IMG/VR virus record: IMGVR_UViG_3300037245_003526
Location: 152,297 to 216,296 of that record
DNA: 64,000 bases
Direction: 5' to 3' (one strand)
DNA from: a virus
Shown here: in pieces, positions 3,083 to 47,754 of the stretch
Layout of the letters: each line of letters opens with the position of its first letter
Position numbering within the stretch: the first letter of the stretch is position 1
Position numbers and translations under genes: made by a program
The notes under the pieces: generated by a model
What the model was told of the DNA's origin: nothing
What the model saw: only the letters and a program-made list of their open reading frames with translations
Database searches by the model: none

Positions 3083-3775
3083 ATGGAAGGCAAACATATA
3101 TGTCACTTTTGTAAAGAATTTATTTCTGATGATGAAATCGGAGGTTCTAAACATGGAGAACCTGTATGTTCTTCATGTTTAGAATATCTTGAATATGGTT
3201 TTCCAATAAAAAAGAAAGAGGTTAGAAAAAATATGAAAAGTGAAATTCAAAAATATAATGGAAATGAACTAACCGAATTAAAAGACTTCATGTATAATAT
3301 ATTAGAATTTGAAGATGATGATCAAGCTAACACCAATATTACTGCTAATCAAGGAATGGGAGTTCAGCTTACAAATACAATGAAAAAAGAAGGTGTTACG
3401 ATAATTCAAAATCAAAGTATTGTAAATAAAAAGGTCACATCCAATGTAGTTAAAGCTCTTAGATTATTGGATAAAATTAAAGATAATTCAGTAAGAACTA
3501 TCGAGATAGAAACAGAGAACAAAAATATCCCAAAAATAACTATAGACCATATAGTTCAAGTTATAGAATGGATAGCTTCAAAAGATCTAACACTAAAAGA
3601 ATTTGATAAATTAATGAGAGGTTTTTATAGTAGAGCTGTAATTGATAAAAATGGTAGTAGTAAACAAGCTTCTGTAATTCTTGGGTGTAGTCAAAGTACA
3701 GCCAGCGTTTATTCAAGAGGAGGAGATGATGTTCTTGATAAAATAAATGGAAATCAATTAGAGGTTATTGAATAA
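3083..3775 (+). CDS. hypothetical protein, N-terminal Cys cluster and C-terminal HTH-like segment
   Basis: CHFCKE..CSSC near the N-terminus; KQASVILGCSQSTASVYSRG resembles a helix-turn-helix. Confidence 0.4.
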   Translation: MEGKHICHFCKEFISDDEIGGSKHGEPVCSSCLEYLEYGFPIKKKEVRKNMKSEIQKYNGNELTELKDFMYNILEFEDDDQANTNITANQGMGVQLTNTMKKEGVTIIQNQSIVNKKVTSNVVKALRLLDKIKDNSVRTIEIETENKNIPKITIDHIVQVIEWIASKDLTLKEFDKLMRGFYSRAVIDKNGSSKQASVILGCSQSTASVYSRGGDDVLDKINGNQLEVIE

Positions 3776-4226
3776 AATGAAACTTGAATCGTGGGAAGTA
3801 ATATGTGATAAATGTAATGGAGACTCATTTGTAGATATAGGAGATAAAAATTATTCTGTAGTATGCCCAAAATGTATAGGTGATGGAAAACTAGATTTTA
3901 TTGAAAATATCACTGGAAAGAAAAAACTTATATGGAAGCCAAGAAGTGAAGGAGCATCTAAATTATGTCAACTTAATGTAAGAAGATTAATTACATATAT
4001 TGAAAAAATAGTTCGATGTATTCTTGATGAACATATTAATAATTATAATAAGAATGTTGTTTTTTCTAAGGTTGATAATATTTTAGATCTCTTAAAAAAC
4101 CGTAAAGCATTCAAATGGTATGAACTTGAAATTATACCTTTGAAGAATAGATCAAACTTAGATATAGTTATAAGACCTCCATTAATAGATGAATCATTTA
4201 AAATATCGTTTACGTATACTTCATAA
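3768..4226 (+). CDS. DnaJ-type zinc-finger (CxxCxGxG x2) family protein, isolated paralogue
   Basis: WEVICDKCNGDS...CPKCIGDGKLDFIENITGKKK has the same motif as the 45.7-47.8 kb tandem family. Confidence 0.5.
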   Translation: MNKMKLESWEVICDKCNGDSFVDIGDKNYSVVCPKCIGDGKLDFIENITGKKKLIWKPRSEGASKLCQLNVRRLITYIEKIVRCILDEHINNYNKNVVFSKVDNILDLLKNRKAFKWYELEIIPLKNRSNLDIVIRPPLIDESFKISFTYTS

Positions 4227-4242
4227 GAACAATAATATAAAT

Positions 4243-4330
4243 GCCCGGGTGGCGTAATTTGGCAGGCGCATCAGATTTAAGCTCTGATATCCATAGTGGT
4301 GTGCGGGTTCGAGTCCCGCCTCGGGCACCA
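4243..4330 (+). tRNA. tRNA-Leu (anticodon TAA), class II
   Basis: manual fold: acceptor GCCCGGG/CTCGGGC, anticodon loop TTTAAGC, long variable arm, T-arm GCGGGTTCGAGTCCCGC, 3' CCA. Confidence 0.8.
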
Positions 4331-4350
4331 TTTTTGAAAGGATAATAAAA

Positions 4351-4962
4351 ATGAAAAGTGAAAACATATGTCTATTTGATATGGACGGTACAATAGTTGA
4401 TTTTGATTCTCAAATGCAAATAGACTTAGAAAAAATGAGAAGTCCTGATGAACCAATTGTTGATCCATGGGATCGTAATTATCCATATATGCAAGCAAGA
4501 AAGTATTCTATTATGAGTCAAGCTGGTTGGTGGAGAAATTTGAAACCAATTGCTGGAGGAATGAATCTTTTAAATGAAGCAGTCCTGATGGGTTTTAATG
4601 TTCATATATTAACTAAAGGACCAGTATTAAGACCTGATGCATGGAAAGAAAAAGTTGAATGGTGTCAAGATCATTTAAATCTAAAAGAAGATAAGATTAA
4701 AATGACTATCACTGAAAATAAAGGTATGGTATATGGTAAAATTTTAGTTGATGACTTTCCTCCATATGTTAAAAAGTGGCTTGAAAATAGACCAAGAGGT
4801 TTAGTTATTATGCCTACTTGTGATTATAATAAAAAATATGAACATCCTAATGTTGTAAAAATTGATTATAATAATCTTGAGAGTGTTTTATACGCTCTCT
4901 CATGTATGAAAAAAGTATTAGATAGAAAACCTAATGAGAAATTATTATTAAACAAAATTTGA
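4351..4962 (+). CDS. HAD-superfamily hydrolase (5'-nucleotidase-like)
   Basis: N-terminal LFDMDGTIVDFD = the HAD DxDGT motif. Confidence 0.6.
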   Translation: MKSENICLFDMDGTIVDFDSQMQIDLEKMRSPDEPIVDPWDRNYPYMQARKYSIMSQAGWWRNLKPIAGGMNLLNEAVLMGFNVHILTKGPVLRPDAWKEKVEWCQDHLNLKEDKIKMTITENKGMVYGKILVDDFPPYVKKWLENRPRGLVIMPTCDYNKKYEHPNVVKIDYNNLESVLYALSCMKKVLDRKPNEKLLLNKI

Positions 4963-4969
4963 AAGGAAA

Positions 4970-5491
4970 TTGATGAAAGTAATTAATTTATTCGGAGGAC
5001 CTGGTTCAGGAAAATCAACTACTGCTGCAGGATTATTCTTCAAAATGAAAATGTCAGATGAAATATCTAGTGTTGAATTAGTTACAGAATTTGCAAAAGA
5101 TTTAGTATATGCGGAAAGATTAAAAGAACTAAGACCTGAAAATCAGATGTATGTAACAACTAAACAATATAGCAGATTAAATAGATTAATAGGTAATGTC
5201 GATTATGTAATAACTGATTCACCTATTATACAAGGATTATTATATACTACTTGGAATTATTTTCCTTCATTCAAACCATTGGTTAAAGAAATATTTGACT
5301 CATTTGAAAATATAAATATATTTTTGAATAGAACTAAACCTTATAAAACATACGGAAGAGCTCAAACAGAATGTGAAGCAGATATTGTAAGTTTCAATAT
5401 ATTAATCTTTTTAAAGAATAATAATATTCCTTATATTACTGTTGATGGTGATAAAGATGCACCTGATACTATTTATAAATATATAATATAA
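4970..5491 (+). CDS. P-loop NTPase / (deoxy)nucleotide kinase-like
   Basis: Walker A GGPGSGKST at the N-terminus; ~170 aa. Confidence 0.5.
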   Translation: MMKVINLFGGPGSGKSTTAAGLFFKMKMSDEISSVELVTEFAKDLVYAERLKELRPENQMYVTTKQYSRLNRLIGNVDYVITDSPIIQGLLYTTWNYFPSFKPLVKEIFDSFENINIFLNRTKPYKTYGRAQTECEADIVSFNILIFLKNNNIPYITVDGDKDAPDTIYKYII

Positions 5492-5509
5492 TTAGAAGGG
5501 AGAATTAAA

Positions 5510-5683
5510 ATGCCTTGGTTAGTAAGAATAGCATTAATAGCAGTAGGTTTTGGACTTGCTAAATTTACTGAAACAGAAGTATGTAAAGATATGACAGAAG
5601 TACTAAAGACAGGCAGTAGACAAATCAAAAAAGATCTTGAAAAAGAAGTTGATGATTTGAAAACGAAAGTAAAAGAAAAATAA
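5510..5683 (+). CDS. small membrane-anchored protein (~57 aa)
   Basis: not in the track; RBS GAAGGGAG; hydrophobic N-terminus then a charged tail. Confidence 0.3.
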   Translation: MPWLVRIALIAVGFGLAKFTETEVCKDMTEVLKTGSRQIKKDLEKEVDDLKTKVKEK

Positions 5684-5691
5684 AGAAATGT

Positions 5692-5777
5692 GCTCGGGTG
5701 GCGAAATTGGCAGACGCGCTAGACTTAGGATCTAGTTCTCATAGAGAGTGGAGGTTCAAATCCTCTCCCGAGTACCA
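5692..5777 (+). tRNA. tRNA-Leu (anticodon TAG), class II
   Basis: manual fold: anticodon loop CTTAGGA, variable arm TCTC-ATA-GAGA, T-loop TTCAAAT, CCA. Confidence 0.75.
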
Positions 5778-5798
5778 TTAAAAAACGAAAGGTGAAAA

Positions 5799-6227
5799 AT
5801 GGGAATAAATATAACAGTAGACGGAAAAAGAATATCAATAGCTGGAAATAAACCAAATATATTACATAATTTTAAAAATTTTTTTGGTAGTATGTTATAT
5901 AAAGATTTTGAAATTAAAGATACTGAAATAGACGAAGTTCTTGATAAAACTGTAGAAGAAGTTCCTGAGGTTTATAATGATATAAAGAAAGATATCAAAG
6001 TAGAAACTTCAAAACTTATTGATGCTAATCTTATTAAAGAATGTATTGAAGATTATGATATAAGGGAAATAGTAAAAAGAGAAATAGCTCAAAAGATTTT
6101 AAAAGTTATATTAAGAGATGCTGAAGATTTAGTTGAAAATGCTTTAGATGATTTTGAGGGTGATAGTGATACACATTGGGAAATACAAAAATTTGTAAGG
6201 AATACAATCATAGGTTCATTTAAATAA
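5799..6227 (+). CDS. hypothetical acidic protein
   Basis: ORF with RBS. Confidence 0.4.
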   Translation: MGINITVDGKRISIAGNKPNILHNFKNFFGSMLYKDFEIKDTEIDEVLDKTVEEVPEVYNDIKKDIKVETSKLIDANLIKECIEDYDIREIVKREIAQKILKVILRDAEDLVENALDDFEGDSDTHWEIQKFVRNTIIGSFK

Positions 6228-6244
6228 TTACTTGGAGGTAAATA

Positions 6245-6388
6245 ATGAAAACTTTATTTTTTTTAGCTCTTTTAAAATTAATAGTTTTATTATTTATCCT
6301 TACTACAGATTACAGTTTATTCAGTTATTATTCAAATAATGTAATGACTTTTTTTAAGAGTTATTATAATAAAATACTTAGAACATAA
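6245..6388 (+). CDS. small hydrophobic ORF (~47 aa), doubtful
   Basis: RBS GGAGG present, but the 3' end contains the promoter-like motif that precedes tRNA-Asp. Confidence 0.2.
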   Translation: MKTLFFLALLKLIVLLFILTTDYSLFSYYSNNVMTFFKSYYNKILRT

Positions 6389-6764: not shown

Positions 6765-6769
6765 AAAAT

Positions 6770-8831: not shown

Positions 8832-9401
8832 ATGCCTGATACAATAAAAGATGGAAAAGGAAGAGGTTATACAGCAGAAGTAAATTCTCAGAACCAGTTA
8901 TCTGTTTCATCAGTTGCAGTAACAAAAGAACATTATGTTAATTTGAAACATGAAGATGCATATAATTTCTTATTTTCACATACAGCAATGGATTCAACAT
9001 CTGCTTGTTGTATTGTATATATGCAAAATACAAGTAGCGAAAATATAATTTGTGAAGGAATGATAATTAGATGCACTGGCGATCAAATATTTACAATAAA
9101 AGTCGCCGAATCTGGAGATCCTACTGGTGGAATTGATACTGTCCCAGCAAATTTAAACGCTGGAAGTAACAGATTAGCTGGTGGAGTATTTCAATATGGA
9201 TGTAATATAACTGGTTTATCTGGCGGACGCGAAATTATTAAATTTTATACAAATGATAGTTATATTGAAAGTCAATCTTGGAATTTTGATGCTGATATTG
9301 TAATTCCACAAAATCAAACATTATCTATTTATATTACGAATCCAAATGTTAATATAGATGGTTTTATTGTACTTTTTCATGATCGTAATGGAAGTAATTA
9401 A
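8832..9401 (+). CDS. putative structural protein, paralogue 1 (conserved N-terminus DGxGkGY..VN..N)
   Basis: the N-terminal motif is shared with the next two ORFs. Confidence 0.45.
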   Translation: MPDTIKDGKGRGYTAEVNSQNQLSVSSVAVTKEHYVNLKHEDAYNFLFSHTAMDSTSACCIVYMQNTSSENIICEGMIIRCTGDQIFTIKVAESGDPTGGIDTVPANLNAGSNRLAGGVFQYGCNITGLSGGREIIKFYTNDSYIESQSWNFDADIVIPQNQTLSIYITNPNVNIDGFIVLFHDRNGSN

Positions 9402-9426
9402 TTATCTAAATATGGGAGTTTTATAA

Positions 9427-10017
9427 ATGGGCTTACAAATAGAAGATGGAACAGGTAAAGGATATTCAGTTAAAGTTAATGCTGATAATGCAATGTCAGC
9501 TGAAGCTGTAATTCATGAATTACAACATCATATAAGTAGATCTTCAGCTCAAGTATATCAAGTTATTGGAGAAACATCAAATATATCTGCTGGAGTAAAT
9601 ACTATACTTCATATATCAAATGATTCACCAGACCTACATGTTGTTGTATCATATATGAGAATTCAAGCTCCTGAATTAGATGGAACTTCTGTTATTAATT
9701 TTCAGACATATTTTCAATTTGGAACAGGAACTGAATATGAAAGTAGTGGGAATGAAGTAACTCCAGTTAATATGAATTTTTCAAGTGGAAATATTGCTAA
9801 TTTATCAGCTTATAAAAACAAACCAACCGTAAGTGGGTTATTTACTGAGTTTGATAGATGGTATCCTGGAGATGGCAAATCTATGATGACATTCAATAAA
9901 GCAGGTTCAGTAATTATAGGAAGAGGTGATACATTAGAAATACGACTAGTTACTGATCAATTATCAGGTACTGCATATTGTCGTGTAACATTATTTTTCA
10001 TGGACTTAAGTACTTAA
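9427..10017 (+). CDS. putative structural protein, paralogue 2
   Basis: N-terminus MGLQIEDGTGKGYSVKVNADNA resembles the neighbouring ORFs. Confidence 0.45.
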   Translation: MGLQIEDGTGKGYSVKVNADNAMSAEAVIHELQHHISRSSAQVYQVIGETSNISAGVNTILHISNDSPDLHVVVSYMRIQAPELDGTSVINFQTYFQFGTGTEYESSGNEVTPVNMNFSSGNIANLSAYKNKPTVSGLFTEFDRWYPGDGKSMMTFNKAGSVIIGRGDTLEIRLVTDQLSGTAYCRVTLFFMDLST

Positions 10018-10030
10018 ATAAGGATTTGAA

Positions 10031-11134
10031 ATGATTAATGCTAAAATATCAAATGGACTCGGAAAAAATTTACATGCTGAAGTTACCGAAGATAATGCTC
10101 TAAAAGTAGCTACTTTAGAATATTATGAATATGAAAGTCAACTAAGATTTTTCGTGAATGATTTTCATGGAATTGATATGGCAGTAAATGCTTCTCCACA
10201 AGGTTCACCTGAGAGAATTCATGATGGTACTGATGATGAATATTGGACAGGTTCAGCGTTGTTAGGAAATTGGATTTTTGATAGTGTTGATCAAGCTTAT
10301 ACTGGAAGTAAAAGTGTAGATGGAACAGGAACTACACATAATAGTCAATGTCAATTTCTTAAAATGGAATATGGTTCTCCAATATTATTTGATTTAATAA
10401 ATTCTACATCAATAACTGGTTGGATTTATTTAGAAAGTTGGCCTGAAACAGGAGTTAAACGATTAGATTTAAACGCGTGGGATACAGTAGGAATAGGTCA
10501 AATTGGTATAACTGTTAATATAGGAGATTATATAAATACCGGAATTTTTAATGTGTGGCAAAAATTTACTATTATTTTAGAAGATATGAGTTTAGTTTCT
10601 GAGAGCATAGATTCAATAAGAATACAAAATGTATCTACAGGAGCAGGTTCACCTATTGAATTTTATATTGATGAATTTAAAATTGATTCTGCTCTTGGAA
10701 GTGTTTCACCAAAAGATTATATAGTTACGGCACCAACTGGGTATTTAATGTTTGTTGATTCAATGTCTGCTGTTTTTGTTGATGCTCATGATTCAAAATT
10801 AGCAGATGCTACAATGCCAAAATTAGCCTATGATAAATTACTTAATAATGCATTTGAAATTGGTATGTTATATAGACGTATTAAAGATGGTGAAGTTTTG
10901 GAAGCTTTACCACTAAAATCTCTTTTTGATTTTTACTCTATCGCTGGGGTTCACGTAGAAGGTCCTGTTTCATGTGGTGTTAATACAATGATGCAACTTT
11001 TCATTGAATTTAAATTTCCTGTTATATTTGATTCAAGAACTTTAGATTATATGTCAATTTTACTTTCAGAAGATTTTTCAGTATTTAAAGAACTAAGGTG
11101 GGGAGCTCAAACAAGATTAAGGAAAATTGAATAA
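10031..11134 (+). CDS. putative structural protein, paralogue 3 (larger)
   Basis: N-terminus ...NGLGKNLHAEVTEDNALKV belongs to the same family. Confidence 0.45.
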   Translation: MINAKISNGLGKNLHAEVTEDNALKVATLEYYEYESQLRFFVNDFHGIDMAVNASPQGSPERIHDGTDDEYWTGSALLGNWIFDSVDQAYTGSKSVDGTGTTHNSQCQFLKMEYGSPILFDLINSTSITGWIYLESWPETGVKRLDLNAWDTVGIGQIGITVNIGDYINTGIFNVWQKFTIILEDMSLVSESIDSIRIQNVSTGAGSPIEFYIDEFKIDSALGSVSPKDYIVTAPTGYLMFVDSMSAVFVDAHDSKLADATMPKLAYDKLLNNAFEIGMLYRRIKDGEVLEALPLKSLFDFYSIAGVHVEGPVSCGVNTMMQLFIEFKFPVIFDSRTLDYMSILLSEDFSVFKELRWGAQTRLRKIE

Positions 11135-12224: not shown

Positions 12225-13442
12225 ATGGATTTTTATGATATAAATTGTTTAGGAAAAATAAGAATAGAAAGATTATCTTCTCTTCCTGCATGGAATACAG
12301 ATGATGAAGGTAGAATAGTTTATCTTAGCTCAACTGAAGAGTTATTTTTTGGAGATGGAAATGCATGGGTTATAATAGACCCTAGCGTTGCATATACTAA
12401 AGCAGAAGCAGATGCCAGATTTTTACGTAAAGATTCACCAGGAGTTGTTGAAGATGTTTATGGTTGTAAAACTTTTTGTAGCGGATTAATTACTAATAAT
12501 TTATCTTCATGTTATAGCAGTACGGGAGATGCAGTACATATTTGTCAATCTAATACTACTACCGGACAAGGATTATATATAAGAACTAATGCATGTTGCA
12601 GTCCTGCTGTAGTCATTAAAAAATCAGGTGGTGTTGGGGAGTGTGAATTAATACGTATATGTGGTTGTACTCCTTATGCTGTTCCTGTATTGAGGGTTCG
12701 TAATTATAGTAATGTGGTCAACAGTATTGGTATGGATGTTTATAACTGCTGTGGATCTTCTATATGGTCAACTAGTCATTATAGCCAAGCAGTAATTGGA
12801 ATTAGTTGTGGAACTCAGGCTGCCATTCATGCCCAAAATTGTGATGGAACTGGTCCTGGATTACACGCTTTTGCAAATAACTCATCTCTTTGTAGTACTG
12901 CTTATTGTTGTCGAGCTCTTGTTGTATGTGGTATATGTGGTTACGGTATAGTTTCACATGCCCCAACTATTGCTATACATGGTCGTTCAACAGTTGGTGT
13001 TGCAATAATTGGTTGTACATGCTCTAATTCTGGTGGAATATATGGTGTCACAACTTGCCAATGTGCTACTGTTGGAGTTGCTACAGTTAGTAGACCAGTA
13101 GCTGGAAATGGAGCATATTATAGCTTTTCTAGTAGACATATAAAACATTTATGTAATGTTTGTGTAACTGAGTGTTTGAGAAAAAGACCTTTAAAAATTT
13201 ATAAGTATACTCATGACGATTCAAATATGATAGGATTTGATGAATTTATAGGACCAACTGCTGAAGATTTTCATAAAACATTCGAACTTGATCACGATGA
13301 TTTTGGAAATGATTATTTAGGTTTATCAGGAGTAGATGGTACAGCATTAGCATTATCAATAGAAAATATGGATAAAATTGATATATTAAAAGTAGTACTA
13401 AAAAGAGTATTAAAAAGACTCAAAAAATTAGAGGAGAAATAA
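12225..13442 (+). CDS. Cys-rich tail fibre protein
   Basis: N-terminus ...LSSLPAWNTDDEGRIVY resembles that of ORF 15767 (tail-collar protein); about 50 Cys in the central region. Confidence 0.5.
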   Translation: MDFYDINCLGKIRIERLSSLPAWNTDDEGRIVYLSSTEELFFGDGNAWVIIDPSVAYTKAEADARFLRKDSPGVVEDVYGCKTFCSGLITNNLSSCYSSTGDAVHICQSNTTTGQGLYIRTNACCSPAVVIKKSGGVGECELIRICGCTPYAVPVLRVRNYSNVVNSIGMDVYNCCGSSIWSTSHYSQAVIGISCGTQAAIHAQNCDGTGPGLHAFANNSSLCSTAYCCRALVVCGICGYGIVSHAPTIAIHGRSTVGVAIIGCTCSNSGGIYGVTTCQCATVGVATVSRPVAGNGAYYSFSSRHIKHLCNVCVTECLRKRPLKIYKYTHDDSNMIGFDEFIGPTAEDFHKTFELDHDDFGNDYLGLSGVDGTALALSIENMDKIDILKVVLKRVLKRLKKLEEK

Positions 13443-15766: not shown

Positions 15767-16366
15767 ATGAAACATTTTGGTATTGAGATGGAAGGAAAGT
15801 TCTATTCTGAACAACTTGCATCAGTTCCAGGTTGGACTTCGGATGATGAATCTCGTTTAGTATATGATCAATCAGGTGATAGATTATACTTTGGTAGTGG
15901 TTCAGAATGGGTAAGAGTTGCTTCGTATGATGAAGTGCAGGCTGCTACAGAATTTCCATCTGGAACTTATATGTTATTTGCTCAAGCAAGTGCACCTACA
16001 GGATGGGTAAGAGATAATGTAATTTCTTCTCCATCATACAAAAGAACAATAATGTTAGCAGAAGATGGAGACGCAGGAGCTGTTAAAGCTGGTAGTTATG
16101 ATTTAATAGGTAGAAGTCTCGCACATGTTCATAGTACAGCAGGTCATAGATTGACTGTACCTGAAATGCCTTCACATACACATGGTGGTGTTTGGAATAG
16201 TACTCTAACAGCCATCCTTGATGGTGGTAACGATGCGCCCTTCTCAGCCAATCAACAAACTACTGCGACTGGAGGTGGAGGATATCATTATCATGGTAAT
16301 ACAGGTTCTAACGGAGGTTCGTTAAATCCAGCATATGTAACAGTTATAATAGCTATAAAAAGTTAA
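15767..16366 (+). CDS. tail fibre protein with tail-collar-like motif
   Basis: N-terminus resembles ORF 12225; C-terminal HVHSTAGHRLTVPEMPSHTHGG resembles the phage tail-collar domain. Confidence 0.55.
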   Translation: MKHFGIEMEGKFYSEQLASVPGWTSDDESRLVYDQSGDRLYFGSGSEWVRVASYDEVQAATEFPSGTYMLFAQASAPTGWVRDNVISSPSYKRTIMLAEDGDAGAVKAGSYDLIGRSLAHVHSTAGHRLTVPEMPSHTHGGVWNSTLTAILDGGNDAPFSANQQTTATGGGGYHYHGNTGSNGGSLNPAYVTVIIAIKS

Positions 16367-40800: not shown

Positions 40801-41115
40801 GTTAGAGGAATGGCAAACTTTAATGAAGTATCATATCCTATACATTCAATTGGTAATAGGGGATATCTATTTCATGTTAACGGAATTGATCTTGATAAAG
40901 CTCCACAAGATGTTGTTGATAATTATAATAAAAATATGTTAGTAAAAGGAAAGAAATTAGATATTGTTGTTGTACCAGATGAAGAAGAAACTTTACCTGA
41001 TTATTATAATCCAAATGTAAAAATGATGTTAGCTAAATCATTTAAAGAACGATATGAACTTATTTTGAAACCATTAACAGAAGCTAAGAAGAAAGAAGAA
41101 ATAATGACTATATAA
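37870..41115 (+). CDS. family B DNA polymerase with 3'-5' exonuclease domain
   Basis: 1081 aa; DLDYTSLYPSLI (motif A), ITGDTDSIF (motif C, YGDTDS-like), KxxxNSxYG-like NSLYGV (motif B). Confidence 0.9.
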   Translation: MFSIKDSFADCSKCSLSNAPSCILETNSKSDLSKVDVVFVSENPGKNEVEKQVPLIGKAGQTFRKYFNKYIKKECKWLLTNCVLCLTLDEKGNTGNPEDEVIDRCKENCFRIIEACNPKLIVLMGTSPMKAFGLGKSGITNLRGKMFNWKGTQVLLTVHPSYVNRNRTFEEKFERDIISAANIVAFLDKPIQIDVDASEAEKGEKGIFRYKIPDKFYTDDFRLVDIQYLNKTNEVLYIFRDRDNKKVYHKECDDYIAYVTPEGLPPRKIIPYDQLHQIKVSYKEKVKLDFETTYEGDLRVTVKHAMDYYHFNKAEADKINSNIMFADIEIDTGIDNKSFPHPKEAKYPINMISTVYHKKVICYVIDNNTDPIEEQEGAEIKIFKNERKMLTTFIADFKETDPDFIAGWNAISFDLEYIFNRLPRIKISKESFSKFGEFYVDGFRYVCNLPGCIVLDQLFLYKSFTFTKKENYKLGTIGEIEVKVSKVKMEFPINEMYYKDINKLIEYNIRDSVLLDKLEDKLGHINLLNELRIICNSSFDGASSPFGQVDSIIVSFLREKGLASKNSNPHVPKKDYPGAFVLEPTPGVYDYAADLDYTSLYPSLIMTYNIGVNNFVMRTEDPAVGHDIAYNPDSMSEEITIIDDPTFEKKRIFMKKEAILKKIKDENLIHTINGCFFKNHSDEVSIYSQVLESLLSGRRAYKKKMLDAKEAGDEQLKDFYNTKQMVYKVLANSLYGVIANKAFRFFDINCAAAITLGGQETLKTSIIEGDAYMTFLKGDSKDPLEGVVDVTRKEVYDKVMPNRKPKNIITGDTDSIFICFEKFKGKKTDEMIIGWCNRMQDYLNSISIQKTIARHNVPSKYNKLELKNELVIRRGLFLAKKYYSIYVTNQEGRAIDEIVYMGISVKRSDTPSHTKVFLKELLDIILKSESFGLPLLFKFINQKEKEFIKLIKEGSKTVAKPVGWNKPLKEYKSLPEGVRGMANFNEVSYPIHSIGNRGYLFHVNGIDLDKAPQDVVDNYNKNMLVKGKKLDIVVVPDEEETLPDYYNPNVKMMLAKSFKERYELILKPLTEAKKKEEIMTI

Positions 41116-41343: not shown

Positions 41344-41365
41344 GAGAACATATTAATATAAATTG
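41344..41365 (+). promoter_or_regulatory. promoter-like motif GAGAACATATTAATATAAATTG
   Basis: GAACATAT-family motif upstream of queE. Confidence 0.35.
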
Positions 41366-41377
41366 AAAGGGGTGAAA

Positions 41378-42049
41378 ATGGAATCAGTTAAACTAATTGA
41401 AAACTTTTATAGTTTCCAAGGAGAGGGTCCGGATTGTGGAAAATCAATGGTAATCATTAGATTCAAATATTGTGATAGAGTAGAAAATAAAAATCCATGC
41501 CAATGGTGTGATACTCTAGTTAAAATGAGAATTCAAAATGAAGCTGAATATTCAATTAAAGATATTCAGTCAGGAATAAAAAAACATAAATGTGGTATAT
41601 TAATAACTGGTGGTGAACCTACTTATAGGAATAATCTACCTCAAACAATTGCACTTCTTAATCAACTTGAATATCCTATAGCAAATGTAGAAACTAATGG
41701 TCATCAATTATGTAAATTAAGAAGTACCATATCATTAGATTCAAGAAATATAAAATTCATATTCTCACCAAAATTATTTTCAAGAAAAGATTTAGTTGAA
41801 GCAAGAGATATAATAAAAATTGTAAAAAATGATCCGAGGGTATATTTAAAAGTTGTATGGGATTATCTTCCTTTAACTAAAGAATTTCTTTATAGTTTAA
41901 GAGAAGTTGATAATTCAAAAATTTTTATAATGCCTCAGGGTAAAACTAAAGAAGAATTGTTTAAATGTGCACCAGATGTATTTGATTTATGTGAAGAGTT
42001 AAAGTTTAATTTTTCAAGTCGAGCACATATAATTTATGACTTTGTTTAG
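41378..42049 (+). CDS. queE: 7-carboxy-7-deazaguanine synthase (QueE, radical SAM)
   Basis: FYSFQGEGPDCGKSMVIIRFKYC...CQWCDT and ILITGGEPT match the QueE N-terminus and Cys triad; start moved to an Met with RBS (the track start lies in the promoter motif). Confidence 0.65.
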   Translation: MESVKLIENFYSFQGEGPDCGKSMVIIRFKYCDRVENKNPCQWCDTLVKMRIQNEAEYSIKDIQSGIKKHKCGILITGGEPTYRNNLPQTIALLNQLEYPIANVETNGHQLCKLRSTISLDSRNIKFIFSPKLFSRKDLVEARDIIKIVKNDPRVYLKVVWDYLPLTKEFLYSLREVDNSKIFIMPQGKTKEELFKCAPDVFDLCEELKFNFSSRAHIIYDFV

Positions 42050-42067
42050 GATGAAAGGAAAAGAAAA

Positions 42068-42310
42068 GTGGCGTATTATAAAAACAATAGTAGTATTGTA
42101 GAAAGAAATAATGGAATATTGGTAGTTCGAAAACCAGGTGAACCATTTGAAATTCTACTTAAGCGATTCAAAAAGAAAGTAATGAATTGTCAAATATTAC
42201 AGGAATTGAAAATGAGGCAAGAGTTCGAAAAACCAAGTCAGAAAAGGATGCGAAAAAAACGAGCTGCAATTAAGAGGATGAAAGACGCAAATAAACAACA
42301 ACGAAATTAA
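42068..42310 (+). CDS. rpsU: ribosomal protein bS21 homologue
   Basis: ILVVRKPGEPFEILLKRFKKKV...LKMRQEFEKPSQKRMRKKRAAIKR fits the S21 consensus (VxVRxNEpfexALRRFKR....REfyEKPtt.RKR). Confidence 0.7.
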   Translation: MAYYKNNSSIVERNNGILVVRKPGEPFEILLKRFKKKVMNCQILQELKMRQEFEKPSQKRMRKKRAAIKRMKDANKQQRN

Positions 42311-42323
42311 AAGGAGAATTAGA

Positions 42324-42605
42324 ATGAGTGATTTAGTTGCAATTGGTGATCATGTTATAGGGAGAGAAATAATTGAAACAACAAGTAAAGGTGGGATAAT
42401 AATCCCTGAAACTGCTGCACCAACTACTCCTCAACTTGAATGTGAAGTAGTATCAGTTGGTCCAGATGTATCATCAGCTCTAAAAGTTGGGGATACTATA
42501 TATTGTCATCAACGAGGTGGACAAGCTCTTATGTTGGATGGTGTATTATATAAAGTTTTGAAGCTTGGTGAAGTATATGGAAGGAAGGTGAGGAATGGGG
42601 AATAA
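42324..42605 (+). CDS. groES: GroES-like co-chaperonin (Hsp10)
   Basis: VAIGDHVIGREIIETTSKGGIIIPETAA...KVGDTIY fits the GroES pattern (rvlvkr.e.e.kt.gGIvlpd.a). Confidence 0.7.
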   Translation: MSDLVAIGDHVIGREIIETTSKGGIIIPETAAPTTPQLECEVVSVGPDVSSALKVGDTIYCHQRGGQALMLDGVLYKVLKLGEVYGRKVRNGE

Positions 42606-43395
42606 TATTATAGAAATACAGGCAAGAGATTTATATGATGCCTGGTTTCAATGTATTTATAAAGTAATTGATGAAGGTAATGTATTCAAGATTGATGAAG
42701 GATCTTATGCAGGAAGTGAAAGATTAGAATTTGATCATATTACAGTTCAAATTAAATACCCTGGTTCAAGACCTTTACTTCCTAAAATATCAGAGAGATG
42801 GGCAATACCTGATCCTGTAGAAGAAGGATATCTTAATGACTACCTTCCATATTTAATGACTGGCGAATTGAAGGAAGGTGAATCATATACTTATGGTCAA
42901 AGGATTTGTAACTATCCTATTCCTCCAATTAAAGATATGTCTACTAAGGGTATTTATATAGATGATTCAGAAATATGGAATAATGATAAAATAATATCCA
43001 TAGAAGGTTATACTTCTTTCTTAAATCAAATGGAACTACTTATTTGGACATATAAAAATAAAGGTTTTAGAAATAACCAAATGGTCCTCCAAGTAGCACA
43101 TCCATCTGATATGGTATTACAAGATCCTCCATGTTTGAGACATATCGATACTAGAATTCAAGATGGTAAACTTCACTTCTTTCCCTATTTCAGATCATGG
43201 GATCTGTGGGGTGGTTTTCCGGCAAATCTGGGAGCACTTCAATTGATGAAGGAATATATAGCAATGGAAATTGGAGTGGAGGATGGGGAAATAATTGCTT
43301 CATCAAAAGGGTTACATCTTTATAAACATGTTTTCGATATTGCTAAAATAATTTCAATTAGAGAAGAAGTAGAACTAAATTATGGATCAATGTGA
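42595..43395 (+). CDS. thymidylate-synthase-fold deoxynucleotide hydroxymethylase (dCMP/dUMP hydroxymethyltransferase-like)
   Basis: ...VLQDPPCLRHID has the TS catalytic PPC(H) motif; ~266 aa. Confidence 0.55.
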   Translation: MGNNIIEIQARDLYDAWFQCIYKVIDEGNVFKIDEGSYAGSERLEFDHITVQIKYPGSRPLLPKISERWAIPDPVEEGYLNDYLPYLMTGELKEGESYTYGQRICNYPIPPIKDMSTKGIYIDDSEIWNNDKIISIEGYTSFLNQMELLIWTYKNKGFRNNQMVLQVAHPSDMVLQDPPCLRHIDTRIQDGKLHFFPYFRSWDLWGGFPANLGALQLMKEYIAMEIGVEDGEIIASSKGLHLYKHVFDIAKIISIREEVELNYGSM

Positions 43396-43473
43396 TCTTA
43401 ATTTTTAACCCACCACCCCCGGATAAAGTGCTCTTCCTAGATTATTAGGAAGGGCACTTTTGAGGTAATAAGA

Positions 43474-44250
43474 ATGGATAAAATAAAAATAGATAAAACA
43501 TTTTTTGACCCAACATTTCCACTCCTAGATAAATTCAGAGAATTAGCACCAGGTTCATACAAACATTGTCAGAACGTTTCTAATATGTGTGAAACAATTG
43601 CTTCCGAGTTGGGTCTTAATATAGAGTTAATAAAGTGTGCTGCTTTATATCATGACTGTGGAAAAATGAATACTCCTCTTTATTTTTCTGAGAATCAATC
43701 AGTAGGAGTTAATATTCATGATACTTTGGATCCATATATGTCATATCATATGATAACTAAACATGTTGGTGATGGAGTTATTCATTTACTACAAGTGGAA
43801 GATATGCCACATGAAGTTATTGAAATAATAAGTCAACATCATGGAGATACAATTGTTCAAGCATTTCATGTTGAAGGTGAACCAGAAGATAAATTTAGAT
43901 ATAAGTGTCCTAGACCTGAATCAACTGAAGCATTAATTTTAATGATAGTAGACTCAGTAGAGGCAACTGCTAAAGCACTCTTTAATAATAATGATAAAGA
44001 AGATACTAAAAAAATAATTTCAAAAGCAATTGATGGAACTGTAGAAAGATTGGCAAATGATCGCCAGCTTGATAATATGAAAATAGGAACACTAAATATA
44101 ACAAAAAAATTCCTTACCAAAGAATTAGAATCAATTTATCATAAGAGGGTATTATATGATACTGCTGAAGATGAAAAAACTGTTGGAGAAGAAATAGATA
44201 ATAAACCAGATATATCTGATGTTCAACAATCAACTCTTGCTGGGGTTTAG
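43474..44250 (+). CDS. HD-domain phosphohydrolase
   Basis: ...YKHCQNVS...AALYHDCGK (H...HD). Confidence 0.55.
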   Translation: MDKIKIDKTFFDPTFPLLDKFRELAPGSYKHCQNVSNMCETIASELGLNIELIKCAALYHDCGKMNTPLYFSENQSVGVNIHDTLDPYMSYHMITKHVGDGVIHLLQVEDMPHEVIEIISQHHGDTIVQAFHVEGEPEDKFRYKCPRPESTEALILMIVDSVEATAKALFNNNDKEDTKKIISKAIDGTVERLANDRQLDNMKIGTLNITKKFLTKELESIYHKRVLYDTAEDEKTVGEEIDNKPDISDVQQSTLAGV

Positions 44251-44267
44251 GTCTTTTTTAATGTTAA

Positions 44268-44286
44268 TGGTAACATATTATAAAGG
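44268..44286 (+). promoter_or_regulatory. promoter-like motif GGTAACATATTATAAAGG
   Basis: GAACATAT-family motif upstream of the TGT-like gene. Confidence 0.35.
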
Positions 44287-44316
44287 AAATTGAATCATTA
44301 AAAAAGGAGAAAATAA

Positions 44317-45708
44317 ATGGCAGAAAGTGGGTATGTTTTAGCGGGTTGCGAAACTCTTTTTACAATATTAAATAATTTTTCTATTAGAAATACAAAGAAT
44401 AGATTTGAAGATCATTTTACACCTAAACAAGTTTCAGATTTTCTATCAAGTAAATGTCATGGTTTCTTACATTCATTTGGACAGAATTTTTCAGGAAAAA
44501 GAAGTTACGCAAAATATATAGATAATGAAGCAAGTATATTTGAATTTATAAGAGACTCGGGTTTTGGAGATGATTGTATATTAAAGATTGATAGCGGTGG
44601 ATTCCAAGCAAGTGTGGGAAGAATTGATAAAAGTGAAACTCAATTATTAATAGATCTTTATTATCAATTTGTAAGAGATAAACATGAAGTGTTTGATAGA
44701 GCATTTATTTTAGACTTACCACCTGGACCAGGATGTACTCTATTTGATTCATTTGATGATATATACACAAAAAATTTAGAAACATATAATATAGCTAAAA
44801 ATCTTCCTGATGAAGCTCGTAAGAAGATAGTTTATATTCATCATTTTCGAACACCAAAATTATGGGATATATATACTGATATATTAAATCAAGATGGAAT
44901 GTTTGAAGCATTTGATTATTTTGGTACTGGTGGTATCGTAGCAAATATGGCAAGTGATGTTTCTATACCATGTATCATATATGTATTACCTTTAATACCA
45001 ATCCTTAAAAAAGCAATTGAAGCAGGAAGAGATAAACTTAAATTTCATATATTAGGTGGATCAAATTTCAGAGATATATTATTTTATGAACTATTTCAAA
45101 AGCATGTTAAAGTACAGCATGGAATTGAATTAGAAATGACTTTTGATTCTAGTGGACTTTATAAAGGTCTTATGATAGGCAGATATTTTTATCATGTTGA
45201 TAATGGAATAATAAAGAAAGTTGATATAAGAAGTCCAAATCTTGATAAAAGATACAACTTCAATAAAAACGTTATTGATATATATGATGATGTAATATCT
45301 GAATTATCTATTCGAAATAATTTTAAACCAATTCCAATAAATATGAATACAGTATATGATGATGAAACTGGTACATTTTTTGAAGAAGTAAAAGTTTATA
45401 CTATGTTTTGTATGTTAGATAGATTTGCTCAAGTACAGCAATTAATGAAATCTAAGGTAGAAGAAATTTATTCATTATATGAAAATGGAGATCTTGAAGA
45501 ATTTAATAAACGTATTGAATTGATAACTAGAAATATTAATGCTGGTAAAATAACTAAAAAACAGAAAGCTAAATCAACTTCAATTATAAGATCATTAGAT
45601 ATGTTAACTGCCTTAGATACTGATAATTGTAAATATATTGTAGATAAATGTTTAGCGAAAGATGAATTCATGGAACTTGATCCAACTTCAAGACTACTTA
45701 CGGTGTAA
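44317..45708 (+). CDS. dpdA: tRNA-guanine transglycosylase (TGT)-family protein, DpdA-like (putative DNA 7-deazaguanine transglycosylase)
   Basis: ILKIDSGGFQASVG matches the TGT DSGGFQ motif; sits beside queE, the hydroxymethylase and the HD hydrolase. Confidence 0.5.
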   Translation: MAESGYVLAGCETLFTILNNFSIRNTKNRFEDHFTPKQVSDFLSSKCHGFLHSFGQNFSGKRSYAKYIDNEASIFEFIRDSGFGDDCILKIDSGGFQASVGRIDKSETQLLIDLYYQFVRDKHEVFDRAFILDLPPGPGCTLFDSFDDIYTKNLETYNIAKNLPDEARKKIVYIHHFRTPKLWDIYTDILNQDGMFEAFDYFGTGGIVANMASDVSIPCIIYVLPLIPILKKAIEAGRDKLKFHILGGSNFRDILFYELFQKHVKVQHGIELEMTFDSSGLYKGLMIGRYFYHVDNGIIKKVDIRSPNLDKRYNFNKNVIDIYDDVISELSIRNNFKPIPINMNTVYDDETGTFFEEVKVYTMFCMLDRFAQVQQLMKSKVEEIYSLYENGDLEEFNKRIELITRNINAGKITKKQKAKSTSIIRSLDMLTALDTDNCKYIVDKCLAKDEFMELDPTSRLLTV

Positions 45709-45709
45709 T

Positions 45710-45925
45710 ATGAAACTAGAAAAATGGGAAACTAAATGTGATCTATGTAGAGGTAAAAAAAAGATTCTTGCAAGAGATAATCCACATTCATATATATATG
45801 TTCATGGTGCAAAAGTAACATGTTCAAAATGTAACGGTACTGGAAAACTTGATTTTATCGAAAAGATAGTTGGGAAAAAATCAGGTAAAGTTAAAATGAG
45901 AAAAGTAGGAGTTTATCATAGATGA
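45710..45925 (+). CDS. DnaJ-type zinc-finger family protein, tandem paralogue 1
   Basis: KLEKWETKCDLCRGKKK...CSKCNGTGKLDFIEKIVGKK; start placed at an internal Met 2 nt after the upstream stop. Confidence 0.45.
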   Translation: MKLEKWETKCDLCRGKKKILARDNPHSYIYVHGAKVTCSKCNGTGKLDFIEKIVGKKSGKVKMRKVGVYHR

Positions 45926-46194
45926 CACTAAAAGAATGGGAATACGTATGTGATAAATGTAAAGGTACTGGATTATGGTGTAAAAATGATGATAAAGACT
46001 GTATTATAGATTTAAGACATTGTGACTCATATATGATAGGTACCAAACAGGGTAATCGTTGTATGTGCCCAAAATGTGATGGATGGGGTAAAGTAGATTT
46101 TATTACAAATATAGTTGGTAAAAAAAAAGTGAATGATTTAAAAATATGGGGTCAAAGAACTTTAAATTTAAGGAGAAAAATAAATGGACTTTAA
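45922..46194 (+). CDS. DnaJ-type zinc-finger family protein, tandem paralogue 2
   Basis: LKEWEYVCDKCKGTG...CPKCDGWGKVDFITNIVGKKK. Confidence 0.45.
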   Translation: MTLKEWEYVCDKCKGTGLWCKNDDKDCIIDLRHCDSYMIGTKQGNRCMCPKCDGWGKVDFITNIVGKKKVNDLKIWGQRTLNLRRKINGL

Positions 46195-46519
46195 TGAGTA
46201 TCAAGACAAATGTAGAAAGACTGCTTTTTATGCACATGGTAAGGAAGGTTTAAAAGTACTATATCCAACTCTTGGCTTAACAGGTGAGTCAGGAGAAGTA
46301 GCTGAAAAAGTAAAGAAGTTATATAGAGATAAAAATGGTGTTATTGATGATGAATTTATTACTAACATAAAAAAAGAGCTTGGAGATGTTATGTGGTATA
46401 TAGCAGCTCTATGTTCCGATTTGAATCTAAGAATGGAAGATGTTGCAAAAGAAAACATCGAGAAATTGTTAGATAGAAAATCAAGGGGCGTGCTCCATGG
46501 TGATGGAGACAACAGGTAA
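46184..46519 (+). CDS. MazG-like NTP pyrophosphohydrolase
   Basis: GLTGESGEVAEKV...ELGDVMWYIAAL are the MazG EExxE/D and helix motifs. Confidence 0.55.
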   Translation: MDFNEYQDKCRKTAFYAHGKEGLKVLYPTLGLTGESGEVAEKVKKLYRDKNGVIDDEFITNIKKELGDVMWYIAALCSDLNLRMEDVAKENIEKLLDRKSRGVLHGDGDNR

Positions 46520-46712
46520 AAGAAAACTACTTGAAGAATGGGAAGAGTGGTGTTCTAATTGTCATGGTTTTGGTCGTTTTGGATTTCATGAACCAAATAA
46601 GAATAGAGACTCGTTTCCAAAGATATGTCCTAAATGTAGAGGTACAGGAAAATTTGATTTTATCGAAAAAATAACCGGGAAAAAGAAATGGGTGTGGGGT
46701 GATGAAACTTGA
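46497..46712 (+). CDS. DnaJ-type zinc-finger family protein, tandem paralogue 3
   Basis: LLEEWEEWCSNCHGFG...CPKCRGTGKFDFIEKITGKKK. Confidence 0.45.
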   Translation: MVMETTGKRKLLEEWEEWCSNCHGFGRFGFHEPNKNRDSFPKICPKCRGTGKFDFIEKITGKKKWVWGDET

Positions 46713-47043
46713 AGAGTGGGAAGAAGCATGTGATAAATGTAAAGGTTTGGGGTGTAAATATGAATACTTAGGTAATGATAACTCATTTCCAGTACGATGT
46801 AAAAAATGTAATGGTACTGGGAAACTTGACTTTATTGAAAAAATAGTTGGGAAAAAAACTTCTGTGGCAAATTCATATACAGTACATAATTGTTCAAATA
46901 GAGATATAGAAATATATGATTTGGGTGTTAAAATTCCTAAAGGTAATACTATTGATTTATCTATTATGTTTACTAATGACCAAATAGAACAATCAGAAGA
47001 TTTAAAAACTTATACAAGGGAGGGGGTACCAAACATTGGGTAG
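46699..47043 (+). CDS. DnaJ-type zinc-finger family protein, tandem paralogue 4
   Basis: KLEEWEEACDKCKGLG...CKKCNGTGKLDFIEKIVGKK. Confidence 0.45.
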   Translation: MMKLEEWEEACDKCKGLGCKYEYLGNDNSFPVRCKKCNGTGKLDFIEKIVGKKTSVANSYTVHNCSNRDIEIYDLGVKIPKGNTIDLSIMFTNDQIEQSEDLKTYTREGVPNIG

Positions 47044-47383
47044 TATAATTACAGGAAAACCTACAATAGTTAGTCCAACTTTTAGTGTAAAAACAGCTAA
47101 ACCTGGTTATCCATTATCTACTAAAAAACTAAAAGATTATGAAGAAGTATGCGATCAATGTAATGGTTTAGGTTTAACAAAATATAGAGACAATGAATTT
47201 AATCCAATGTCATCTAGTTATAGATGTCCTAAATGTTCCGGTTTTGGTAAACTAGATTTTATTGAAAAAATTGTAGGTAAAAAATTAAAATATGGTGAAG
47301 CAGAACGAATGAGAATAGATTCATCTGGTAATGTTGGAATTGGATCAGTAGCTCCAACACAAAAATTGGAAATTAGATTATGA
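47036..47383 (+). CDS. DnaJ-type zinc-finger family protein, tandem paralogue 5 (fibre-repeat-like C-terminus)
   Basis: YEEVCDQCNGLG...CPKCSGFGKLDFIEKIVGKK; C-terminal SSGNVGIGSVAPTQKLEI resembles the phage tail-fibre repeat. Confidence 0.45.
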   Translation: MGSIITGKPTIVSPTFSVKTAKPGYPLSTKKLKDYEEVCDQCNGLGLTKYRDNEFNPMSSSYRCPKCSGFGKLDFIEKIVGKKLKYGEAERMRIDSSGNVGIGSVAPTQKLEIRL

Positions 47384-47754
47384 AAATAAAAGAATACGAA
47401 TATATATGTGACGAATGTGATGGTTTAGGATTAGTTAAAAGAAAATATGAAGAGTTTGAAGTTGTAACTAAAAGTACTACATGTCCAAAATGTTTAGGTG
47501 ACGGAAAACTTGACTTTATTGAAAATATAACTGGTAAGAAAGCTAAGACATTTACTATTGAATCTGATGCTAACCCATTTACTATTACACCTGATCCTAG
47601 TTTGTCTGGTGGAATAGTTTGGAAAGATGGAGGTGTACCAGCTGGTCCAACAGAAGGTGATGCTTATTTTGATCAAATAAAAGATTCTATGTTTGTTTAC
47701 GATGGAAAAGAATGGGTTGAAGTATGTGATCCTGTATCTATAGGAGGGGTATGA
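47380..47754 (+). CDS. DnaJ-type zinc-finger family protein, tandem paralogue 6
   Basis: YEYICDECDGLG...CPKCLGDGKLDFIENITGKK. Confidence 0.45.
   Translation: MKIKEYEYICDECDGLGLVKRKYEEFEVVTKSTTCPKCLGDGKLDFIENITGKKAKTFTIESDANPFTITPDPSLSGGIVWKDGGVPAGPTEGDAYFDQIKDSMFVYDGKEWVEVCDPVSIGGV

Follow-up and report, generated by a model that had tools for sequence, protein, structure and literature searches.

The question raised by this locus is what a virus might do with seven small zinc-finger (ZnF) proteins that share one N-terminal module and end in different C-terminal tails. The genes lie in a 64,000-nucleotide (nt) stretch of IMG/VR virus record IMGVR_UViG_3300037245_003526 (positions 152,297 to 216,296), and this whole 64-kb stretch is referred to here as the window. 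The original prediction, made from the letters of the DNA, had described a family of DnaJ-type zinc-finger proteins and had offered roles as chaperones, host-interaction proteins or anti-defence proteins. Wherever a tail could be identified in the present analysis, sequence comparison pointed to homology with a segment of a virion protein, a relationship shown for several tail classes. The anatomy of the tails narrows the roles offered earlier to mimicry-based binding, none of them being proven.

Tails were read in 243 homologues, 120 from a first database search and 123 from an exhaustive one. Database homologues are denoted by P-numbers (e.g. P0157), and the loci or contigs of relatives by L-numbers (e.g. 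L032).

Seven copies of a zinc-knuckle module

A six-frame regular-expression scan and a hidden Markov model built from the cores (expectation (E) values of 1e-24 to 1e-30 per copy) agreed on exactly seven copies of the module in the window. As predicted, six were in tandem (45710-47754), around a MazG gene that was recovered by both Pfam and PHROGs, and one was remote (3777-4226). The genes are as follows, with protein lengths in amino acids (aa).

3777..4226, + strand: ZnF copy 7 (remote copy), 149 aa (to 152 aa if the start is at 3768); tail of about 100 aa, of the likely sheath C-terminal class
45710..45925, + strand: ZnF copy 1, 71 aa; the core and a 14-aa tail, SGKVKMRKVGVYHR
45922..46194, + strand: ZnF copy 2, 90 aa; long Cys/His-rich loop between the knuckles and a 22-aa tail, KVNDLKIWGQRTLNLRRKINGL, of the 'IWGQ' class
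46184..46519, + strand: MazG-like nucleotide pyrophosphohydrolase (Pfam 3.2e-11, PHROG 7e-38), at the same position in relatives
46497..46712, + strand: ZnF copy 3, 71 aa; near core-only, with the 8-aa tail KWVWGDET
46702..47043, + strand: ZnF copy 4, 113 aa (113-114 aa depending on the start), TAG stop; 61-aa tail that makes up a small domain
47036..47383, + strand: ZnF copy 5, 115 aa, TTG start, ribosome-binding site GGGAGGGGG; 30-aa N-terminal extension and tail end RIDSSGNVGIGSVAPTQKLEIRL
47380..47754, + strand: ZnF copy 6, 124 aa; 70-aa tail ending GDAYFDQIKDSMFVYDGKEWVEV, with an orthologue in L001

Proteins of this family are 60-150 aa long and consist of an N-terminal zinc knuckle of about 55 aa, a short conserved K-L-D-F/W-I-E-x-I-x-G-K-K helix, a short linker that is often rich in Ser and Lys, and a variable C-terminal tail. 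The core in the window was a single-zinc knuckle of about 55 aa, in which K-L-D-F-I-E-x-I-x-G-K-K comes after a pair of CxxCxGxG hairpins. Alignment of the seven cores gave invariant columns at E7, C10, C13, G15, C38, K40, C41, G43, G45, K46, D48, F49, I50, I53, G55, K56 and K57, and it upheld the description of a conserved zinc-finger module, paralogous and tandem-expanded, with diversified C-termini. The LDFIE..I.GKK block, on which the original prediction had made the family depend, was present in all seven copies, copy 2 having the variant DFITNIVGKK. In the first knuckle, copy 1 (CDLCRGKK) and the remote copy (CDKCNGDS) do not keep GxG. The likely starts of the remote copy and of copy 4 are ATG 3777 and ATG 46702, which are also where the homologues P0207 and P0016 begin.

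Neighbouring genes of the array abut or share a few bases, at junctions such as ATGA, an arrangement like that of a single operon, and no terminators were found within the array block. Likeness among the copies at the DNA level was limited to a 67-nt block around the second knuckle (67-87% identical). Because nothing beyond this block is still alike, the duplications that gave rise to the array are old; the block could still support unequal recombination.

Three ways of generating or switching tails from the existing genes were considered and rejected. Fusion of copies 4 and 5 by read-through or frameshift was discarded: the two are in different frames, reading through the TAG would add no more than 9 aa, and copy 5 is provided with a ribosome-binding site and a TTG start of its own. 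Programmed slippage at GGN-AAA-AAA (the GKK codons) did not hold as a tail switch, the A-run being neither present in all copies nor in register. Read-through into adjacent structural genes was set aside since the arrays lie several kb from the capsid gene in all loci and none of the fetched loci contained a sheath gene.

Two further observations concern single copies. The loop between the knuckles of copy 2 (45970-46070) has 35 aa with four extra Cys and one His, as is also the case in L001 9034-9321 and P0017, and from its sequence it may hold a second metal site. Directly upstream of the remote copy, a 230-aa open reading frame (ORF; 3083-3775) with two N-terminal CxxC pairs and no family match is probably translationally coupled to it.

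Tails and the virion segments they resemble

The window genes with which the tails were compared, and a co-chaperonin gene considered further below, are as follows.

12225..13442, + strand: Cys-rich 405-aa ORF, putatively fibre-like, with a motif of the copy 6 type at residues 26-56
15767..16366, + strand: tail-fibre-like protein (PHROG tail protein 2.5e-7), putative cognate of the copy 6 tail
42324..42605, + strand: GroES/Cpn10-like co-chaperonin, co-directional with the array block; the L032 orthologue is PF00166
56418..57875, + strand: gp23-type major capsid protein, holding both segments that are copied by ZnF tails of relatives, LPILRVFYPKLVAKELITLSPM and WTINMEQD...QIALDIDREIVNALITG

Capsid-type tails were found in the relatives, a Pfam Gp23 match being present in the tails of none of the seven window copies. 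One class corresponds to an internal segment of the capsid protein. The tail of P0113 matched Pfam Gp23 (PF07068) at profile positions 148-200 with 36.7 bits (E 4e-9) and L019 11839-12288 matched it with 34.1 bits, for a cut-off of 24.4 bits; the tails of P0034 and L004 10001-10366 matched at the same positions (E 2e-3 and 3.6e-3). The motif ...A.xID.EIL... was present in about 30% of the 243 family members examined, and the capsid protein of the window contains a matching internal segment, WTINMEQDMRALFDLSMQAEIVNILGQQIALDIDREIVNALITG. From the topology of the HK97 fold, we infer that this segment comprises a strand of the P domain and the spine helix.

A second class corresponds to the N-arm of the capsid protein. 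The tail of L004 7393-7662 ends in TSITLPIIRHIYPKLIAKDLISVQPID, and the capsid protein encoded on the same contig has ETLTLPILRVFYPKLVSKELVTVSPMD, with 14 of 27 positions identical; this tail also matched Pfam Gp23 at positions 4-30 (E 1.4e-3). The 'IWGQ' tail of copy 2 could be tied to the N-arm class only through intermediates such as P0068 (IWGQMAIPKIRTKYPKLIAKELAFVQPI). The T4 counterpart, MVRRAIPNLIAFDICGVQPM, lies within residues 92-132 of gp23, and the Gol region of T4 is taken here to span approximately residues 93-122. Gol has been described as a stretch of 29 residues within the first quarter of gp23, and as the most conserved part of that protein; it binds EF-Tu and activates the abortive-infection protease Lit (PMC3014915). 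The N-arm tails of the relatives are homologous to the region of gp23 that holds residues 92-132, and a short peptide from there suffices for sensing by a host defence (PMC3014915). They differ from the T4 system in that Gol is part of the capsid protein whereas the phage copy is separately encoded and fused to a zinc knuckle, and the window holds only a truncated version, in copy 2.

Some relatives combine several elements in one protein. Two ZnF modules were present in each of P0121, P0122 and P0123, and the tail of P0154 joins a PGVY motif to the motif of the capsid internal segment; these proteins are read as chimeric baits.

The tail of the remote copy is likely to be the C-terminal domain of a tail sheath protein. 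This assignment follows transitive and structural lines, because the window protein alone did not reach significance with Pfam (no sheath match at E <= 1). P0157, a member of the L005 array, matched Phage_sheath_1C (PF17482) over positions 2-103 of the 104 in the model with 32.6 bits, and L019 9926-10420 matched it with 27.5 bits (cut-off 26.9 in both cases). In BLASTP the remote copy was aligned with P0157 at 6e-19 and with P0210 at 4e-22, the alignments spanning most of the tail. Positions 9-101 of the sheath-class tail profile were collinear with residues 547-643 of 9EV2 and residues 546-644 of T4 gp18 (library E values of 0.57 and 0.92). The AlphaFold2 (AF2) model of the remote tail has two helices and a three-stranded sheet, with a predicted local distance difference test (pLDDT) score of 80-90. 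Searched against the PDB with Foldseek, this model returned sheath proteins at E values of about 0.75, and a fold search of BFVD gave sheath proteins and gp25-type 'baseplate wedge subunits' among the top matches (best E 7e-3, probability up to 1.0). The remote tail probably belongs with the domain class of the gp25/TssE sheath initiators and the sheath C-terminal domain (PF17482); in contrast to these, it is joined to a zinc knuckle, and its gene lies among tRNA genes and early-type genes.

The BFVD matches also included small uncharacterised proteins, of about 94-105 aa, from cultured T4-like phages such as Proteus Pm5461, Erwinia Cronus and Escherichia EcS1; DUF7355 is the annotation of two of these proteins. 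On the basis of the model comparison, these may be stand-alone relatives of the sheath-C-like tail.

A PGVYxKEIDLS class of tails has been compared with the sheath N-terminus. The T4 gp18 N-terminus, MTLLSPGIELKETTVQS, resembles this class and is given as a lead only. The end of the copy 1 tail, K-V-G-V-Y-H-R, also resembles it, and this K-x-GVY end may, weakly, be a truncated motif of the sheath N-terminal type. The copy 1 tail is kept in P0011, P0015 and L032.

The original prediction had noted tail-fibre-repeat-like motifs (GNVGIGSVAP...) in the C-termini of two copies. Fibre-like motifs were indeed present in two tails, those of 47036 and 47380 (copies 5 and 6); GNVGIG was present in copy 5 only, and copy 6 had a different fibre N-terminal motif. 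The tail of copy 5 (SSGNVGIGSVAPTQKLEI) matched the tail-fibre families phrog_9942 (1.2e-4) and phrog_18345 (3.8e-4). A three-stranded sheet was predicted by AF2 for the tail of copy 6 (strands at pLDDT of about 90), and a profile of 17 sequences of this tail, aligned with hhalign in single comparisons, matched ORF 15767 (P 5e-4) and ORF 12225 (P 9e-4) over residues 26-56. Both tails therefore show a similarity to fibre families that is modest and is judged from sequence. ORF 12225-13442 is itself extremely Cys-rich and repetitive, with a fibre-like N-terminus and a basic, probably helical C-terminus, and had no match in PHROGs, NCBIfam or PDB.

Two features of the copy 6 tail gene were also recorded. 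A 27-nt tandem duplication (47542-47595, AKTFTIESD / ANPFTITPD) seems to be missing in the L033 orthologue. At its 3' end (47706-47730, KEWVEVCD), the tail shares 84% identity over 25 nt with the beginning of the copy 2 ZnF core, and the core 5' ends of other copies (KEWEYVCD) were similar as well. A truncated eighth copy could have left this sequence behind, or it could mark a recombination junction.

For copy 4, the tail domain was found again between the two knuckles of double-ZnF proteins.

The knuckle, its tails and their possible functions

The module had been called DnaJ-type, which holds as a resemblance and not as membership. AF2 models of the core (pLDDT of about 95) show two zinc hairpins and a short DFIExI helix (residues 46-51). 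The gathering cut-off of PF00684 (DnaJ_CXXCXGXG; 32.7 bits) was missed by all seven copies, which scored 14.6-26.1. Each copy has two CxxCxGxG repeats, and not the four repeats with two zinc centres of DnaJ, the loop of copy 2 holding no further CxxCxGxG; no J domain with an HPD motif was detected by Pfam in the seven proteins of 71-149 aa. The cysteine-rich (CR) domain of DnaJ/Hsp40 (PF00684) shares the zinc-binding CxxCxGxG hairpins, whereas DnaJ additionally has a J domain, a G/F region and C-terminal substrate domains, and the phage proteins have their own conserved KLDF/WIExIxGKK helix and a virion-derived tail.

None of the fold matches of the core was statistically significant for so small a domain. 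The top PDB match in Foldseek was Anti-TRAP (3LD0/3LCZ; 32% identity over 47 columns, E 0.085), the zinc finger of DnaJA2 matched with a root-mean-square deviation of 1.7 Å over 42 columns, and BSD2 (8ILB, 6EKB) was among the PDB matches, with weak matches to Pfam BSD2_CRD. The alignment and the AF2 models show the architecture of Anti-TRAP, a stand-alone module of about 50 aa with two CxxCxGxG making a single zinc centre and then a helix. The score against PF15777 was below its cut-off of 32 bits, in the window (best 26.0, copy 5) and in the relatives (best 31.2, L004). Judged from sequence and models, the core resembles, and may act like, a stand-alone half of a DnaJ CR domain, and is not a member of the DnaJ-CR or the Anti-TRAP Pfam family.

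Known proteins of this kind give some indication of what such a knuckle can do. Anti-TRAP of Bacillus, a stand-alone protein of about 53 aa in which a helix comes after one DnaJ-like zinc centre, forms a trimer or dodecamer, binds TRAP and so blocks another protein by binding. The phage proteins differ in being encoded on phage contigs rather than in the Bacillus trp regulon and in carrying variable tails, and in this context TRAP is an unlikely partner for them. BSD2 and the plastid DnaJ-like assembly factors are likewise small stand-alone knuckles of the CR type, BSD2 being a placeholder on an assembling oligomer, Rubisco; unlike the phage proteins, BSD2 has no bait copied from its client, and its sequence and fold matches were not significant. 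By analogy, the internal-protein (IP) loci of T4 are also hyperplastic arrays of small proteins with a conserved N-terminal module and variable C-terminal payloads, and the IP proteins are thought to act in host-phage conflict. There is no relation in sequence or fold, and the N-terminal module of the IP proteins is a capsid-targeting peptide.

The tails suggest a mechanism in which each would be a tethered mimic that docks competitively on whatever recognises the original segment. The partner could be a neighbouring subunit (in the sheath, the capsid or the fibre socket) or else a host sensor of the segment, and the zinc knuckle would serve as a compact handle or a steric cap. The ZnF proteins are probably made before the virion proteins, because their genes sit in a block of replication and nucleotide-metabolism genes. 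Early decoys or antagonists of this kind could then pre-occupy host sensors of conserved virion segments.

A conflict or decoy function is slightly favoured over assembly capping, as a tentative choice held with less than even confidence, because the repertoire turns over fast between phages with near-identical capsid proteins. By analogy, the gp23 Gol peptide that triggers Lit would be a precedent for a decoy (PMC3014915).

The evidence on turnover comes from comparisons across relatives, in which copy number differed between phages (3, 3, 5, 6, 6 and 7): seven copies in the window, six in L032, five in L003/L004, and three in each of L001 and L005. L033 had at least five copies, one of them extra, on a contig that starts inside MazG. 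The capsid proteins of the phages compared read as nearly identical over their N-terminal halves. Against L032, a 98%-identical phage, and L033, flanking genes gave a non-synonymous divergence (dN) of 0.007-0.036 and a dN/dS ratio (omega) of 0.10-0.34 in most comparisons, with MazG at an omega of 0.92 against L032, on very few changes. ZnF copies 1 and 4 gave dN of 0.15-0.19 and omega of 0.68-0.92 (copy 1 against L032: 0.15 and 0.68), and the tail of copy 4 gave dN of 0.34 and omega of about 1.9 against L032. Overall the ZnF genes had an omega of about 0.4-0.9, with most tails below 1. Copy 3 was identical in L032 and 71% identical in L033. The exact identity of copy 3 with L032, next to a 24% divergence of copy 4, indicates that the array has a mosaic history. 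Turnover, raised dN and non-universal presence are more typical of conflict genes.

The family is large, with 2,939 clusters (at 50% identity) at E <= 1e-3 and 946 at E <= 1e-10, and almost all of the 150 best matches listed were of 60-200 aa. The IMG/VR contigs that were fetched carried tandem arrays of 3-13 family genes. A further lineage of jumbo phages, one that encodes a multisubunit RNA polymerase, also had arrays of 6-8 genes (L029 9078-10975, L030 9312-10898). These last arrays adjoin GTP cyclohydrolase (GCHY-1) and radical-SAM genes, and are thus again beside genes of the 7-deazaguanine type. An exact scan for DNA coding for DWIENIVGKK in 185,579 species genomes, a method of low sensitivity, gave one match, on a short contig of an archaeal metagenome-assembled genome. 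No match of the ZnF copies to the PADLOC-DB defence models was better than E 3e-3.

Several points weigh against reading the proteins as early decoys built from virion segments. The tails of copies 1, 2 and 3 (8-22 aa) are too short to assign, searches with the copy 4 tail returned only family members and stand-alone 75-aa proteins, and a PDB profile search with the PGVYxKEIDLS class as a sheath N-terminus gave only chance matches to serine proteases. Early expression is read from gene neighbourhood alone, the promoter scans being uninformative: sigma-70-like sites were no commoner than in shuffles, and TATAAATA occurred at about the chance rate estimated from base composition. By displaying the trigger epitope, a decoy might itself set off the sensor. 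Each half of the sheath and capsid contacts appears to have its copy, which suits assembly control no less well. Near tail-less members exist (copy 3; P0012), and the core must therefore have a function of its own, perhaps the binding of a common partner, which fits an adaptor version of either main model. No carrier was found among cultured phages (INPHARED, blastn and tblastn), and the dN/dS values were drawn from 60-120 codons in two comparisons with recombination evident.

Control of assembly is a possible, if somewhat doubtful, alternative. The proteins would then be placeholder or capping chaperones similar to BSD2, whose tails occupy the sites at which sheath, capsid and fibre subunits, while still unassembled, would contact one another; they might keep subunits from polymerising too early (into polysheaths or polyheads) or escort them to a shared partner that the knuckle binds. 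The N- and C-terminal elements of sheath proteins form the handshake between subunits, the capsid N-arm touches neighbouring subunits, and fibre N-termini anchor the fibres, so that in established structures the copied segments are inter-subunit contacts. Known stand-alone knuckles similar to the DnaJ CR domain are protein-binding assembly or antagonist factors, with BSD2 and Anti-TRAP among the top folds. In L003, adjacent genes carry tails of the PGVY and sheath-C types, together with three capsid pieces; the remote tail resembles gp25-type sheath-initiator folds, and a Cpn10 co-chaperonin is encoded in the same gene block. An essential chaperone would nevertheless be expected to be conserved, whereas dN and omega are raised relative to neighbouring genes, phages with near-identical capsids have different ZnF sets, the window has no full capsid-type tail, and the relative locus L006 has no copy within 10 kb of the portal gene.

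The ZnF proteins might also be directed at other phages or at satellites. They would then be dominant-negative fragments interfering with capsid, sheath or fibre assembly in co-infecting myoviruses or satellites, competitors in which these highly conserved contact segments are the same. The motifs found in the tails are the most conserved ones of gp23-type capsids and contractile sheaths; the tails also turn over fast and are just 35-52% identical to the phage's own proteins, so that they could suit foreign proteins better. This explanation is nevertheless unlikely, as the assembly of the producer itself should be poisoned too, and we know of no phage precedent for a weapon made of dominant-negative fragments.

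Even less probable is a function as zinc-ribbon regulators that bind nucleic acids, such as Q-like antiterminators, with tails that are incidental. Core-only members exist, and weak matches to phrog_6060 (a 61-aa 'anti-termination protein Q-like' family) were obtained, with E values of 1.9e-6 for copy 3 and 0.003-0.46 for the others. These matches cover the generic Cys knuckle alone and not a full-length Q-like antiterminator with its DNA- or RNA polymerase-binding parts; the proteins have no DNA- or RNA-binding domain, and such a function would leave the recurrent and conserved virion-homologous tails unexplained.

The least credible explanation is that the tails are functionless debris of abundant late genes, fused by illegitimate recombination to a duplicating zinc-finger gene, for although the 67-nt block could drive unequal recombination, the tails of copies 1-3 look truncated and the copy 4 tail has a raised omega, lineages that are very divergent have tail classes in common, with the motif positions kept, most tails have an omega below 1, the tails are in frame and folded in the AF2 models, and they are far more diverged from their source proteins than a recent capture would be.

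The decoy reading can be extended, as an idea that we regard as possible and would not call probable, to libraries of fast-evolving zinc-knuckle 'self-epitopes' (capsid contacts including Gol, sheath contacts and fibre contacts) that are made early and pre-empt host sensors or poison rival assembly. To our knowledge, no counter-defence or conflict strategy that relies on mimicry of a phage's own structural proteins has been described, and no description of a knuckle joined to a virion fragment was found in the literature searched, PHROGs or PADLOC; the systematic fusion of a CR-type zinc-knuckle binder to virion fragments is unprecedented. If the tails are mimics, they would constitute a natural peptide library marking the capsid, sheath and fibre segments that are important for assembly or for bacterial immune recognition. 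They would also offer handles for finding host sensors of structural proteins (Lit-, CapRel- or Avs-like), possibly a control of sheath and capsid polymerisation, and an account of approximately 2,900 clusters of 'hypothetical DnaJ-like' genes in jumbo-phage metagenomes. Should the function prove mundane, the repeated in-frame joining of virion-protein fragments to a single tiny zinc module would remain an unusual example of domain and peptide shuffling in phages.

Genome setting

The window has 30% G+C and 21 tRNA genes, and among its genes are T4-type ones for morphogenesis (portal, gp23-type capsid). Proteins identical to copy 4 and the remote copy are recorded on a 244,552-bp contig of the Joint Genome Institute (JGI), which places the window in an uncultured jumbo myovirus. 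The capsid protein of this virus was at most 25% identical to any INPHARED record, and the array region had no DNA or protein match in INPHARED (blastn, tblastn).

The array is preceded, in order, by genes for a uracil-DNA glycosylase (UDG)-PolB protein, a small Zn-ribbon ORF, a QueE-like radical-SAM protein, S21, Cpn10, a ThyA-like protein, an HDIG protein and a 463-aa ORF. From the array onward the order is two ZnF genes, MazG, four ZnF genes and DnaB, then the portal, the prohead protease and gp23. Gene order around the array is the same in relatives, and the arrays lie between nucleotide-metabolism genes and DnaB in all loci.

Several of these neighbours have features of their own. The UDG-PolB gene (37870-41115) encodes a 1,081-aa family-B DNA polymerase with an N-terminal domain of the uracil-DNA-glycosylase superfamily, which was kept in all relatives fetched. 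S21 (42068-42310; TIGR00030, 4.7e-13) adjoins the Cpn10-like gene (42324-42605), and both were kept in relatives. The QueE-like radical-SAM, ThyA-like and HDIG genes, with the conserved 463-aa ORF containing DSGGFQ, form a block (41363-45708) for which DNA or nucleotide modification is a possible function. The DSGGFQ motif recalls tRNA-guanine transglycosylase/DpdA, but the 463-aa ORF had no match in Pfam, PHROGs, NCBIfam or PADLOC.

The tRNA genes form a cluster at 4243-26587 (21 genes), including one with the suppressor-type anticodon CTA at 26513-26587, called as tRNA-Pyl by ARAGORN. TAG was the stop codon in 13 of 76 long ORFs, ZnF copy 4 among them, and a partial recoding of TAG is possible. 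Three adjacent paralogous ORFs at 8832-11134 (189, 196 and 367 aa) share the N-terminal motif DG.GKGY..(E/K)VN..N.L.V and gave no informative family match. At the start of the window, 4-1386 encodes a nicotinamide phosphoribosyltransferase (PHROG 2.7e-140), an auxiliary gene of NAD salvage.

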